64,000 nucleotides of DNA from Minisyncoccota bacterium (lineage in GTDB: Bacteria > Patescibacteriota > Minisyncoccia > Phycocordibacterales > UBA918). The notes under the pieces are model-generated. The model was not told the origin of the DNA, searched no databases, and saw nothing but the letters and a program-made list of their open reading frames with translations. This document shows, one piece after another, positions 45,265-53,764 of the stretch. The translations under genes and the position numbers were made by a program. The DNA lies in the NCBI GenBank assembly GCA_937975855.1, contig CALJTT010000004.1:5583-69582 (forward strand). The letters run 5' to 3'. Numbering within the stretch: position 1 is the stretch's first letter; each line of letters starts with the position of its first letter.

Positions 45265-46638
45265 ATGAAATTTTCCGCCATTGGGATCGGATTAACTTTT
45301 GTTATTCTCCTAGTAGTATCAATTGGAATAATCGACCAAGACCATCCGACGCCGGTTATTATTATTTCTGATGGAGCAAAATTGCTACCCTCAGCCGATC
45401 AACCACTTTATTTTCCTATCTTGCCCGACCCCAGATTTGACAATAGACCAGTCGTCCAGGTTGCGACTTTTACTGCCAGTACCACAGCACTAGCCAGCGC
45501 ACAGCCGGCAGTTAGAACTCCCTTGCCACACAGCGAAGTGATCCCCACCGAGCGCGAATTTTCTTTTGCGACCACACCCAAGCCGGTAAAAAACCCTGAG
45601 CCAGAACAAACACCACCAAATGAATCTGTCGTCCAGCCAGCAGCAAAACCTGTCGAGGTTTTAGTTGTTCCTAAACCGCAACCCAACCCAGAACCAGAAC
45701 CAGAACCAGAACCAGAACCAGAACCAGAACCAGAACCAGAACCAGAAAAGCCTACAGTGCCTGTGAACAACTCGACAATTAACGAAAAAACTCCTGCCAA
45801 CGTTGACTGGGGAGTGTTTTCGTCGGGACCGGCTGGAATTCGTGAGTTTGAATCATACGTGCCACATAATCCTGACTACTTGGCTTATTTTGTGCACTGG
45901 GGAAATGGAAATGGTGAATTGCCAGAATTTCTCAAAACTGAAGCACGCGACAAAGATCGTACTCTCGTCTTATTCTGGGAAGCCAGTGATTACTTGATCG
46001 GTGGAACAAATCAGCCTGCCTATTCATACCGAAAAATACTGGACGGAGATTTCGACGACTATTTTGACGACTTCTATAAGCAGCTACAGTCATACAATGG
46101 CGAGGTGATCCTTATCCCTTTCTCTGAGCTGAACGGTAACTGGACACCTTGGTCTGGAACACTGAACGGCAATTCTCCGGCAGAAGCAGTAGCTGCGTTT
46201 CGCAAGGTTTACCGTAAATTTTCTCCACTTGAAAACGTGAAAATAGGCTTGGCGTTTAATGCAGCTTCTGTACCAAACATTCCAGGGAACCAAATAGAAA
46301 ATTATTACCCGGGTAGTGATTTTGTCGATATTATTGGACTAGACGGTTTTAATGGACTCAATAACGAATGGCTTAGCTTTGACGAAATTTTTGGCCGACC
46401 ACTCGAACGGCTCGCCAGATACAACAAACCAGTCATGATTTTCTCTTACGCCTCGGGCGAAGGACCCAACAAGGATGATTGGTTGGAAGACATGTACTAC
46501 ACGCAACTACCAAAACATCCTTATGTCACTGGCTGGGTCTATTTTAACCAGAACAAAGAAATGAACTGGTTAATTTGGTCTGACAAGCCGGCGCTGGACG
46601 TGTTCAACGAAACTGTTGAGAAGCTGAACAGAATGTAA
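45265..46638 (+). CDS. Secreted/N-anchored glycoside hydrolase, GH26-like (beta-mannanase-type TIM barrel), with (Pro-Glu)n linker
   Basis: N-terminal TM IGLTFVILLVVSIGII. Linker PEPEPEPEPEPEPEPEPEPE. GH26-like motifs IPFSELNGNWTPW (cf. RFAHEMNGxW acid/base) and YYPGSDFVDIIGLDGF (cf. YYPGDxYVDWVGxD). The nucleophile motif is not clearly conserved. Confidence 0.5.
   Translation: MKFSAIGIGLTFVILLVVSIGIIDQDHPTPVIIISDGAKLLPSADQPLYFPILPDPRFDNRPVVQVATFTASTTALASAQPAVRTPLPHSEVIPTEREFSFATTPKPVKNPEPEQTPPNESVVQPAAKPVEVLVVPKPQPNPEPEPEPEPEPEPEPEPEPEKPTVPVNNSTINEKTPANVDWGVFSSGPAGIREFESYVPHNPDYLAYFVHWGNGNGELPEFLKTEARDKDRTLVLFWEASDYLIGGTNQPAYSYRKILDGDFDDYFDDFYKQLQSYNGEVILIPFSELNGNWTPWSGTLNGNSPAEAVAAFRKVYRKFSPLENVKIGLAFNAASVPNIPGNQIENYYPGSDFVDIIGLDGFNGLNNEWLSFDEIFGRPLERLARYNKPVMIFSYASGEGPNKDDWLEDMYYTQLPKHPYVTGWVYFNQNKEMNWLIWSDKPALDVFNETVEKLNRM
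45688..45746 (+). repeat. (CCAGAA)n hexanucleotide microsatellite (~10 copies) encoding the (PE)n linker
   Basis: Read directly: cccagaaccagaaccagaacc.... Confidence 0.85.
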
Positions 46639-46694
46639 TACAAACAAAAACAGCCAGTGACCTTTTGGCCACTGGCTGTTTTTGTTATTTATAG

Positions 46695-52727: not shown

Positions 52728-52729
52728 AT

Positions 52730-53764
52730 TTAGGTTGTTACAGACTTATTAATAAACCGTTCAGGTTTGAACCACGTCAGGTTCTTACGTCGAAGGAAAA
52801 CTTCAATCACCATTTGTTCTAGGAAAATGTATGAATTGATTACTGCGATGAAAAGATATGGTATCGGCACCAAAATCAACTCCCAACGTTTTTCTCTCCA
52901 CGCAGCGTAGATCGCTAGAATAAAAGCAACTGGAAGATAAGTCAAAAGGAAGTACAAGAAGACCTTCAGGCTCAAGATCGGCAGAATAAATACCATCAGA
53001 GCGAACACTAGACCTTCTGTGTAAAGGATCGTAAGCACAAGACTACTCTTTGGCAAACGACCAGCAAGGCTATGGTGCTTCATGAGACACTGCCATCCAC
53101 CAGCAAGCCATCGGCGCATCTGGTTGATGTAAGAGTGAAGTGTAGCTGGATCCTGGGTGTACACGATCATACGACGGTCATACTGGATCTTTAGATCAAG
53201 TGTGTGCAGTCGGTAAGTAAAATCAAGATCCTCAGTCAAAGTATCGTGTTCAAATGGAATGTAGTTTCGAAAATCTTCAGTTTTGAACACCGCCGCAGCG
53301 CCAGGAATCACAAACAAGAATCCTAGGTGATGTTGCGATAGCTTGTGTAGGTTTTGCCCCACACTGTACTCAAAAGCACGACACGCTGTGATCCAGTTGT
53401 GACGCATGCTGCGCACGTAACCACTAACCGCTGATAGCTCAGGGTCTTTGTTTACGTTTTCCTCAAGATACATAAGGAAATCCTTGTCGAGGACTGTGTC
53501 ACCGTCAGTTGCCACAAAGTAGTCTGAGGTAACGAACTTTAGACCAATTTCTTGGGCGAAGCTTTTGTTCCCAGTTGCCTTAGGCATCGTCAGAACTGTG
53601 ATCTGATCACCGAACTCACGAAGAAGCTCGCCACTACGGTCATTACTACCATCATTAACAATGATGATTTGATCAGCAGGGCGTGTTTGAGCCAAGCATG
53701 AACGAACGCAGTCGGCGATACCAACTTCTTCGTTATAGCATGGGATTAAAATTGAGATTGTCAT
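52730..53764 (-). CDS. Processive family-2 glycosyltransferase (polysaccharide synthase; IcaA/PgaC/NodC/cellulose-synthase-like) with C-terminal TM helices
   Basis: ISILIPCYNEE, DGSNDRS, DGD (DxD), TED and the processive-GT2 signature QMRRW (QxxRW). 3 C-terminal TM segments. Stop is 2 nt from the start of the 2010-aa gene. Confidence 0.7.
   Translation of the reverse strand: MTISILIPCYNEEVGIADCVRSCLAQTRPADQIIIVNDGSNDRSGELLREFGDQITVLTMPKATGNKSFAQEIGLKFVTSDYFVATDGDTVLDKDFLMYLEENVNKDPELSAVSGYVRSMRHNWITACRAFEYSVGQNLHKLSQHHLGFLFVIPGAAAVFKTEDFRNYIPFEHDTLTEDLDFTYRLHTLDLKIQYDRRMIVYTQDPATLHSYINQMRRWLAGGWQCLMKHHSLAGRLPKSSLVLTILYTEGLVFALMVFILPILSLKVFLYFLLTYLPVAFILAIYAAWREKRWELILVPIPYLFIAVINSYIFLEQMVIEVFLRRKNLTWFKPERFINKSVTT

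Follow-up and report, generated by a model that had tools for sequence, protein, structure and literature searches.

A patescibacterial gene cassette of a compact GT2 synthase, a small membrane partner and a nucleophile-less GH26-derived protein, probably for an Ica/Pga-like surface glycan

Three adjoining genes in a 64,000-nucleotide stretch of contig CALJTT010000004.1 from a Minisyncoccota (Patescibacteria) bacterium (the window; all positions refer to it) raise the question of which glycan, if any, they make, and which of their products work together. An earlier note, made from the sequence alone, had read the locus (45265-53764) as a synthase of glycosyltransferase family 2 (GT2), a large binding subunit rich in carbohydrate-binding modules (CBMs), and a trimming hydrolase. 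On comparison with related genomes, we consider it reasonably probable that the genes form a cassette characteristic of Patescibacteria, an Ica/Pga-like synthase-dependent system for a surface glycan, with a polymer containing N-acetylglucosamine (GlcNAc) as the probable product.

The three open reading frames (ORFs) had the boundaries given in that note: 45265-46638 (+; 457 amino acids, aa), 46695-52727 (-; 2,010 aa) and 52730-53764 (-; 344 aa). The 344-aa gene encodes the GT2 protein and, also as described, its stop lies 2 nt before the start of the 2,010-aa gene (TAA-AT-ATG). The 457-aa gene, whose product resembles glycoside hydrolase family 26 (GH26), had been called divergent; in fact it runs towards the 3′ end of the giant gene, a convergent arrangement, and is divergent only from an unrelated CAP-domain gene (44082-45239). 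Between the stops of the two convergent genes lies a bidirectional intrinsic-terminator hairpin (46649-46686) with a perfect 9-bp stem and flanking A- and T-runs (A-run, CAGCCAGTG...CACTGGCTG, T-run), which was read directly from the sequence and was listed in part by a promoter/terminator scan. Counts in that scan were at the level expected by chance, and only the directly read hairpin was used. No tRNA or Rfam element was found in the 64-kb window.

Thirty GT2 homologues were aligned, and 80 related genome loci (numbered L below), extending up to 10 kb on each side of GT2, were compared with the domains of the window after ORFs had been called in each (4,612 ORFs over the 80 loci). The best homologues, with up to 87% identity, were metagenomic; named ones belonged to Candidatus Nomurabacteria, Kaiserbacteria and Parcubacteria. 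The 80 loci span Kaiser-, Taylor-, Vogel-, Portnoy-, Lloyd-, Staskawicz-, Nomura-, Moran-, Woese-, Shapiro-, Gottesman- and Peregrinibacteria. Their canonical gene order was GT2, then a small membrane protein that we call TMp, then a CBM-like protein, which may or may not begin with a GSDH-PKD part, then a GH26-like gene, usually convergent; the arrangement in the window, including the convergent GH26-like gene, is thus the standard one. Within 10 kb of GT2 we found TMp in 65 of the 80 loci, a CBM-like module in 55, a GH26-like gene in 42 and a GSDH domain in 25. These counts are lower bounds, because many loci are short contigs. The earlier note had proposed conserved linkage in relatives as a check, and a CBM-like module or a GH26-like gene accompanied GT2 in 60/80 loci. 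Because the same arrangement recurs in dozens of related genomes, that in the window is not a chance juxtaposition, and the order was kept across deep lineages in which GT2 identity is only 47-70%. Clustering of all ORFs of the 80 loci for further conserved cassette genes (IcaC-like acyltransferase, porin, flippase) returned only shadow ORFs and lineage-specific housekeeping genes. Elsewhere in the 64-kb window there was no deacetylase, no additional CBM-like module and no second TMp. A literature search on glycan synthases, GH26, sorbosone dehydrogenase, DUF2334 and giant surface proteins of Patescibacteria (candidate phyla radiation) found no description of the cassette.

The 344-aa protein (52730-53764, -) was assigned as a minimal processive-type GT2 synthase from Pfam GT2 families, NCBIfam, alignment, AlphaFold 2 (AF2) modelling and Foldseek. 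It carries the DxD motif D87-G-D89 (53498-53506), the TED motif at aa 177-179 (53228-53236) and the QxxRW motif QMRRW at aa 215-219 (53108-53122), all on the minus strand, and has hydrophobic helices at the C-terminus only, as had been read from the sequence. In the 30-sequence alignment D38/D42, D87-x-D89, T177-E-D179 and Q215-xx-R218-W219 were invariant or nearly so. The AF2 model (pLDDT 84.6, pTM 0.83) predicts a GT-A domain, one amphipathic interface helix (aa 209-229) that includes QMRRW, and three C-terminal transmembrane (TM) helices (aa 238-264, 266-291 and 300-323). No N-terminal TM helix and no PilZ domain was found in the protein. The best NCBIfam match was PgaC_IcaA (TIGR03937), at 148.6 bits, under the equivalog cut-off of 422.3; the XrtG-associated GT (72 bits), NodC (53.5 bits) and CelA (40.2 bits) models scored lower. 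The PgaC_IcaA match covers model positions 46-315 of 407, and GT2 has nothing that corresponds to the membrane part at the N-terminus of PgaC.

Foldseek comparison of the model with PDB ranked class I hyaluronan synthases (HASs; Chlorella virus HAS and Xenopus HAS1) first, with full-length matches at TMq 0.72-0.78, followed by BcsA and yeast Chs1. Soluble GT2 enzymes aligned with the N-terminal half alone, both in Foldseek and with the sequence profile; a PDB sequence search with that profile returned BcsA, HAS, Chs and soluble GT2 enzymes only, and no PgaC or NodC structure. The class I HASs are compact, single-subunit, GlcNAc-using synthases, and their identity with the cassette GT2 is only 15-17%. 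HASs also have additional N-terminal TM helices, need no partner and carry GDD rather than TED; unlike in HASs, we saw no evidence of a second (glucuronic acid) activity in GT2. Motifs, best curated family and full-length matches to hyaluronan, cellulose and chitin synthases agree with the processive clade expected in the earlier note. Judged by its predicted structure, GT2 belongs with the polymer-translocating GT2 synthases, though it is unusually small.

A channel is hardly to be expected from three TM helices by themselves, and GT2 probably needs TMp for a complete one. The same shortage of helices could be read as a sign that GT2 is not a polymer synthase, and makes either short oligosaccharides in the manner of NodC or, like GT21 enzymes and processive glycolipid synthases, a glycolipid or lipid-linked sugar, the product then anchoring or glycosylating the giant surface protein. 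Weak matches of GT2 to Glyco_transf_21 and NodC would fit this, as would the occurrence of QxxRW-type motifs in ceramide and glycolipid glucosyltransferases. We consider it very unlikely: the best full-length structural matches are polymer-translocating synthases, the conserved partner could supply the missing helices, and CBM arrays, a deacetylase and an endo-type GH fold suit a polymer better than a lipid head group.

TMp was found by an iterative hidden Markov model (HMM) that was seeded with the first 185 residues of the 2,010-aa protein and converged on a module of ~105 residues. In the window it corresponds to aa 1-109 of that protein (52401-52727, -), a two-TM core whose ATG stands 2 nt past the GT2 stop, and it was the single match among the window ORFs. 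TMp directly follows GT2 in 65/80 loci, with no other HMM match among the 4,612 ORFs; its start lies -366 to +145 nt from the GT2 stop, mostly within ~35 nt. Most genomes encode it separately, as a protein of 90-160 aa whose two helices are strongly hydrophobic. The N-terminal motif PFxGLSxxxHL, in which Gly is invariant, is conserved, and the HMM match therefore reflects more than shared hydrophobicity. No family match was obtained in Pfam (E<=0.1) or NCBIfam (E<=0.01); homology to PgaD/IcaD was considered and is unsupported by these searches. As far as sequence comparison goes, TMp is a new partner family of the GT2 synthase and, rather than the CBM array, the conserved partner. The interpretation in the earlier note is supported in its outline by the conserved synteny and the gene fusions, but not in taking the CBM array for the conserved synthase partner.

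In seven loci (L017, L018, L022, L025, L027, L038 and L052), the ORF past GT2 aligned with no more than the second half of the TMp model, and its start lay ~105-145 nt past the GT2 stop. The first TMp helix may have been lost, have diverged or be encoded otherwise in this sub-lineage.

The in-frame fusion of TMp to a GSDH-PKD-CBM giant that is seen in the window also occurs in seven loci. It is not a sequencing or assembly artefact, because it recurred in an independent assembly (L001) and seven further genomes. The unfused arrangement was seen in L003 and L010-L014; in L003, the closest unfused relative, a 142-aa TMp is followed after 70 nt by a 2,160-aa giant. The extra hydrophobic helices at aa 110-185 of the window protein (52173-52400, -; hydropathy scan and sequence) close with a stretch resembling a signal peptide, SR-LLMVVVLGGTLLAIPAVAGA-Q, that matches the N-terminus of the unfused giants. 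Such a stretch between TMp and the propeller is what would be expected from fusion of a TMp gene with a giant gene. In other loci TMp is fused to a domain of ~200 aa; all 15 aligned proteins of this type matched DUF2334, and 10 of them also matched the carbohydrate esterase family 4 (CE4) model Polysacc_deac_1. R, DD, H and H residues were invariant among the 15 and resemble what we take to be the metal-binding and catalytic motifs of CE4. Since TMp is fused either to the GSDH giant or to the CE4/DUF2334 domain, one docking module appears to bear different glycan-processing domains according to lineage.

These fusions bear on a further explanation, in which the giant, and possibly the GH26-like protein too, is an adhesin or scavenger for foreign glycans of a host or the environment, with its GSDH and GH26 domains processing harvested sugars, and GT2 and TMp make an unrelated envelope glycoconjugate and are merely co-transcribed. 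Large surface proteins and an episymbiotic life are attributed to many Patescibacteria; the window contains genes for a 5,516-aa protein and for cohesin/dockerin proteins as well, and combinations of CBM and GH domains are typical of degradative systems. Nevertheless, TMp is fused to the giant in seven loci and stands directly upstream of it in many others, it is fused to a polysaccharide deacetylase elsewhere, the gene order is kept despite the deep divergence of the lineages noted above, and the supposed degradative enzyme has lost its catalytic nucleophile. Scavenging with an unrelated GT2 product is in our judgment a rather unlikely account of the locus.

The loss of the nucleophile is seen in the 457-aa GH26-derived protein, which we call GH26-S (45265-46638, +; Pfam GH26, PDB homology and hydropathy). 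It begins with a membrane anchor (aa 1-26), continues with a Pro-rich linker that holds the (PE)n stalk noticed previously, a (PE)10 run at aa 142-161 (45688-45747, +), and has its (beta/alpha)8 domain at aa ~174-455. The Pfam GH26 match (PF02156) was 29.1 bits against a cut-off of 20.2. The closest solved relative was the lichenase CtLic26A of Clostridium thermocellum (2bv9; E 9e-26), and beta-1,3-xylanase and mannanases matched more weakly. In CtLic26A the catalytic residues are, we assume, Glu109 (acid/base) and Glu222 (nucleophile), a numbering consistent with the HMMER alignment. GH26-S and 47 relatives from the loci were aligned with CtLic26A. Glu288 (46126-46128, +) aligned with Glu109, the acid/base site on strand 4, and was conserved in 47/48 sequences. 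The surrounding acid/base motif xExNGxWxPW is conserved too, and the (beta/alpha)8 domain is shared (2bv9/2cip). In contrast, Ser394 (codon TCT; 46444-46446, +) aligned with Glu222 and was Ser in 48/48; the strand-7 site reads KPxxIFS(Y/F)xS in GH26-S relatives and KPIIIAEFAS in CtLic26A. GH26-S further differs from CtLic26A in an invariant Asn for His257, in other clade-specific invariant residues and in the membrane anchor via the (PE)n stalk. Outgroup GH26 proteins (a Micromonospora enzyme and two metagenomic proteins) retain Glu at the nucleophile site, and TCT is not a single step from GAA/GAG.

The replacement is widespread. When 1.84 billion cluster representatives were searched with GH26-S and the best 150 clusters at 50% identity were tallied, the nucleophile site was Ser in 103, Glu in 44, Gly in 2 and Ala in 1; the Ser forms took nearly all of the first ~95 ranks, and nearly all clusters kept the acid/base Glu. 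About 30 residues around the GH26-S pocket were invariant. The clade does not look like one of decaying pseudogenes, since it is large and coherent and keeps these pocket residues. Because Ser stands in place of the nucleophile Glu, the classical retaining mechanism is excluded, and with it the ordinary retaining hydrolysis implied by the label of trimming hydrolase. No other carboxylate qualified as an alternative nucleophile: Glu399 was kept in only 17/48 sequences, and Asp409 and Glu432 were variable or present also in canonical GH26 proteins. GH26-S may therefore act with a single carboxylate, the 2-acetamido group of the substrate taking part in catalysis; it may bind or handle the glycan without hydrolysis; or it may use another mechanism. 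The first fits the indications of GlcNAc given below and is no more than our leading hypothesis; GH18, GH20 and GH85 enzymes and lytic transglycosylases use such participation of the substrate acetamido group. One CBM-like module of the type found in the giants also sits on the GH26-S protein itself in two loci (L023:8527-9876 and L024:7744-9843), which suggests that GH26-S and the giants share a glycan ligand.

The extracytoplasmic array fused to TMp in the window spans ~1,830 aa. The Pfam matches to GSDH (172 bits), PKD_4 (68 bits) and CBM_4_9 and the polytopic N-terminal membrane region all agree with the earlier description of the 2,010-aa protein, which also matches Pfam Big_7. About eight CBM modules had been counted; an internal repeat HMM gave six CBM-like repeats and three Big_7 domains. 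From the membrane outward (all on the minus strand), the array consists of a GSDH-type beta-propeller (aa 195-529; 51141-52145), a PKD domain (aa 561-645; 50793-51047) and a domain at aa ~650-745 (50493-50780) that has no Pfam match, is conserved in all GSDH-type relatives by BLASTP and is probably Ig-like. These are followed by CBM-like repeat 1 (aa 740-897; 50037-50510), CBM-like repeat 2 (aa 901-1058; 49554-50027), Big_7 Ig domain a (aa 1069-1157; 49257-49523), CBM-like repeat 3 (aa 1160-1317; 48777-49250), CBM-like repeat 4 (aa 1326-1480; 48288-48752), Big_7 Ig domain b (aa 1491-1580; 47988-48257), CBM-like repeat 5 (aa 1591-1743; 47499-47957), Big_7 Ig domain c (aa 1754-1843; 47199-47468) and CBM-like repeat 6 (aa 1847-2001; 46725-47189). 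All six repeats came from the repeat HMM; Big_7 domains a and b were found by both Pfam and the repeat HMM, and c by the repeat HMM. The repeats are ~155 aa each, and one of the six, repeat 2, was above the Pfam CBM_4_9 cut-off (37.4 vs 25.9 bits). They are nearest to CBM4/CBM22/CBM16, and their profile matched CBM4-2 in PDB at E 9e-4. Judged by profile similarity, the repeats appear to belong, distantly, to the CBM4/9/22 jelly-roll superfamily, in line with the carbohydrate-binding type supposed in the earlier note.

The GSDH propeller scored 172.4 bits against PF07995 (cut-off 25), with PDB relatives 2ism, 3a9g, 1c9u and 2g8s. Among 26 sequences His328 and Arg404 were invariant and Asn405 was kept in >=90%. 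These residues align with the catalytic His and the Arg-Asn pair contacting pyrroloquinoline quinone (PQQ) in sGDH, 2ism and 3a9g; the aligned His is presumably the catalytic base of sGDH. The propeller thus resembles the PQQ aldose dehydrogenases (sGDH, E. coli YliI/Asd, Thermus 2ism and Pyrobaculum 3a9g, with the related CAZy family AA12) in its six-bladed GSDH fold, catalytic His and Arg-Asn. It differs from them in falling under the TIGR03606 cut-off (104.6 bits; cut-off 434.55), in a last blade that cannot be aligned and in its place within a giant surface protein tethered beside a glycan synthase. It was always membrane-proximal, adjoining TMp. The domain also has invariant Cys residues (SCEDF…ADC and WPC), which suggest disulfides. 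A gene for a DsbA-like thioredoxin was seen near the cassette in seven loci (L066:64-783 and six others).

Which polymer does the cassette make? We favor a GlcNAc-containing polymer appreciably over a neutral beta-glycan. GlcNAc is indicated by the ranking of PgaC_IcaA among the families matched by GT2, by the fusions of TMp to CE4/DUF2334 domains and by a 262-aa protein encoded directly upstream of GT2 in L025, whose match to GlmU (195 bits) is confined to the uridyltransferase half. In L013, L027, L038 and L062 the gene directly upstream of GT2 likewise encodes a protein of the same BLAST cluster as this GlmU-N-like (UDP-GlcNAc diphosphorylase-type) protein. Proteins of GlmS architecture (GATase and two SIS domains) were encoded near the cassette in L011, L025/27, L056 and L076.

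A neutral product, whether cellulose-like, mixed-linkage or mannan-type, would leave the cassette itself unchanged, with GH26-S as a non-catalytic binding or chaperoning protein or as an enzyme with a different nucleophile or base. It draws on the lichenase CtLic26A as closest solved relative of GH26-S; on relatives that one source calls beta-mannanase; on the proximity of the repeats to CBM4/CBM22/CBM16, binders of xylan and glucan; on the TED motif, which is also the form found in BcsA; and on the matches of CelA and BcsA models and structures to GT2. PgaC_IcaA nevertheless scored ~100 bits above CelA, the cassette shows linkage to genes for GlmU-like and GlmS proteins, and a TMp-fused CE4/DUF2334 domain would serve no purpose on an unacetylated glucan, though O-acetyl esters are possible. 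The invariant Ser and the ~30 invariant pocket residues argue, also against this reading, for a working and not a decayed active site. We regard a neutral glycan as possible but clearly the less likely product.

Several points weigh against a GlcNAc-containing polymer and the roles that we give the cassette proteins. We infer all of the biochemical roles, including those of the GSDH and GH26 proteins, and the polymer identity. The PgaC_IcaA score of 148.6 bits is far enough under 422.3 that the family does not settle the donor sugar, and proximity to GlmU and GlmS genes is weak evidence because these are housekeeping genes of peptidoglycan synthesis. A neutral beta-glycan is suggested by the nearest solved relative of GH26-S, a beta-1,3-1,4-glucanase, by the substrates of GH26 relatives (mannan, beta-1,3-xylan and mixed-linkage glucan) and by CBM4/9/22 modules, whose usual ligands are glucans or xylans. 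The residue preceding the acid/base Glu is variable in the GH26-S clade (S, E, D or H), so the Asp/Asn helper of substrate-assisted enzymes is not at the obvious place. There is no deacetylase within the 64-kb window. PQQ binding by the propeller is uncertain, because its last blade, which in PQQ enzymes presumably bears two cofactor-binding Arg residues, lay outside every alignment. The AF2 model of CBM-like repeat 4 was of low confidence (pLDDT 62).

Among known systems, the cassette can be compared first with those for poly-N-acetylglucosamine, staphylococcal IcaADBC and E. coli PgaABCD. PgaC/IcaA is the best-scoring curated family for GT2; a small two-TM protein comes right after GT2, and in sister lineages a CE4-type deacetylase comes next, as in the icaA-icaD-icaB order of synthase, small membrane protein and deacetylase. 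A protein of polymer-cleaving type is associated with the cassette, and the C-terminal domain of PgaB and dispersin B are polymer-cleaving enzymes of the systems for poly-N-acetylglucosamine. The differences are equally plain. GT2 scores under the equivalog cut-off, and the first ~45 residues of the PgaC model have no equivalent in it; TMp has no detectable likeness to any Pfam/NCBIfam family, including whatever PgaD/IcaD models those libraries contain, and it bears large extracytoplasmic domains C-terminally. No PgaA-type porin and no IcaC was found at the cassette loci, and no cyclic di-GMP module was evident. The hydrolase-like protein is derived from GH26, not GH153/GH20, and the GSDH propeller and CBM arrays have no counterpart.

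With BcsA-BcsB/BcsZ the cassette shares a processive TED/QxxRW GT2, one of the top structural matches being BcsA; an extracytoplasmic partner that is anchored in the membrane and bears domains of carbohydrate-binding type, here presumably also over the channel; and a dedicated glycanase or glycanase-like gene in the cluster. No PilZ, BcsB or GH8 match was found in the three cassette proteins and their neighbours. GT2 has three TM helices versus eight in BcsA, its partner is anchored N-terminally and BcsB C-terminally, and its glycanase is a GH26 derivative without nucleophile, whereas BcsZ is a GH8 enzyme. The earlier note had remarked that a GSDH propeller and CBM arrays are not building blocks of Bcs or Pga systems, and we likewise found no counterpart there. 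It had also called the binding subunit periplasmic or extracellular; the first of these labels is probably inapplicable, since Patescibacteria are thought to lack an outer membrane. In its predicted function the cassette resembles the Ica/Pga and Bcs systems, and it is a member of none of them.

A working model for an Ica/Pga-like cassette can be proposed from these comparisons. GT2 would polymerise a UDP-sugar, most likely UDP-GlcNAc, and thread the chain through its channel. TMp would complete this channel or cap its exit, and would thereby put its fused domain right at the exit; IcaD/PgaD for IcaA/PgaC, and the anchor of BcsB for BcsA, do something similar. In sister lineages a CE4-type deacetylase at the exit would perform the IcaB/PgaB step, and in the lineage of the window the GSDH propeller at the same place would bind or oxidise the reducing end of the chain. 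In BcsA and other processive GT2 synthases the chain grows at its non-reducing end, and by analogy the reducing end would exit first; it is for this reason that we propose the propeller to act on it. PQQ aldose dehydrogenases act on the anomeric carbon of free reducing sugars. The CBM-like modules would hold or organise the polymer on the cell surface, and GH26-S would cut or remodel it by means of a single carboxylate and the 2-acetamido group of the substrate. To our knowledge, no acetamido-assisted, single-carboxylate activity on a GlcNAc polymer is known in GH26. In its most specific form, with TMp as a phylum-wide docking subunit for swappable domains, a propeller that oxidises or clamps the reducing end, and a GH26-S that carries out acetamido-assisted cleavage or transglycosylation of a GlcNAc polymer, the model is a tentative one and unlikely to be correct in every part.

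Genes for other surface proteins lie around the cassette. Directly upstream of GT2, on the same strand, a sortase gene (53983-54612, -) overlaps by 8 nt the end of the gene for a 667-aa lamin-tail-domain (LTD) protein (54605-56608, -), which ends in IPAAG, a hydrophobic stretch and RRLKVNV and looks to have a non-canonical sorting signal; sortase genes were also present near GT2 in 10 related loci. Further upstream, a gene for an extracytoplasmic function (ECF)-type sigma factor (57693-58274, -) is followed by that of a 315-aa protein without family match (56743-57690, -), possibly an anti-sigma factor. This pair, upstream of the LTD-sortase-GT2 string, may regulate surface genes. An ORF of 5,516 aa with a TTG start (18511-35061, -) had Pfam matches only to DUF2341 and, weakly, to an Ig-like domain; next on that strand come the genes for an FN3/purple-acid-phosphatase-N protein (16966-18507) and for a MacB-type ABC transporter pair (14424-16962). 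Secreted proteins with cohesin/dockerin type I and Ig-like domains are encoded at 35159-36697, 37283-39238, 4549-5307, 5999-7768 and 10284-11423 (all -), and suggest that this bacterium has surface structures assembled by cohesin-dockerin pairing. The gene for a UmuD-like S24 peptidase (43574-44071, -) overlaps that for an ImpB/UmuC-type Y-family polymerase (42321-43613, -); together they have the look of an SOS pair for translesion synthesis, here in a reduced genome.

Patescibacteria account for much of bacterial diversity; their genomes are very small, and a life attached to other cells is assumed for many of them. Since a four-part glycan cassette has been retained over deep lineages of such tiny-genome bacteria, it likely matters for the envelope or for attachment. 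Our analysis adds the TMp partner family, the modular fusion of processing domains to TMp and a large GH26 clade without nucleophile to what the earlier note had described. A synthase with three TM helices and a new partner family would be useful for defining the minimal needs of a translocating synthase. The fusion of differing processing domains to the same docking helices points to a modular principle. The large, well-delimited GH26 subfamily with Ser in place of the nucleophile would represent either a new catalytic solution or a conserved pseudo-enzyme.

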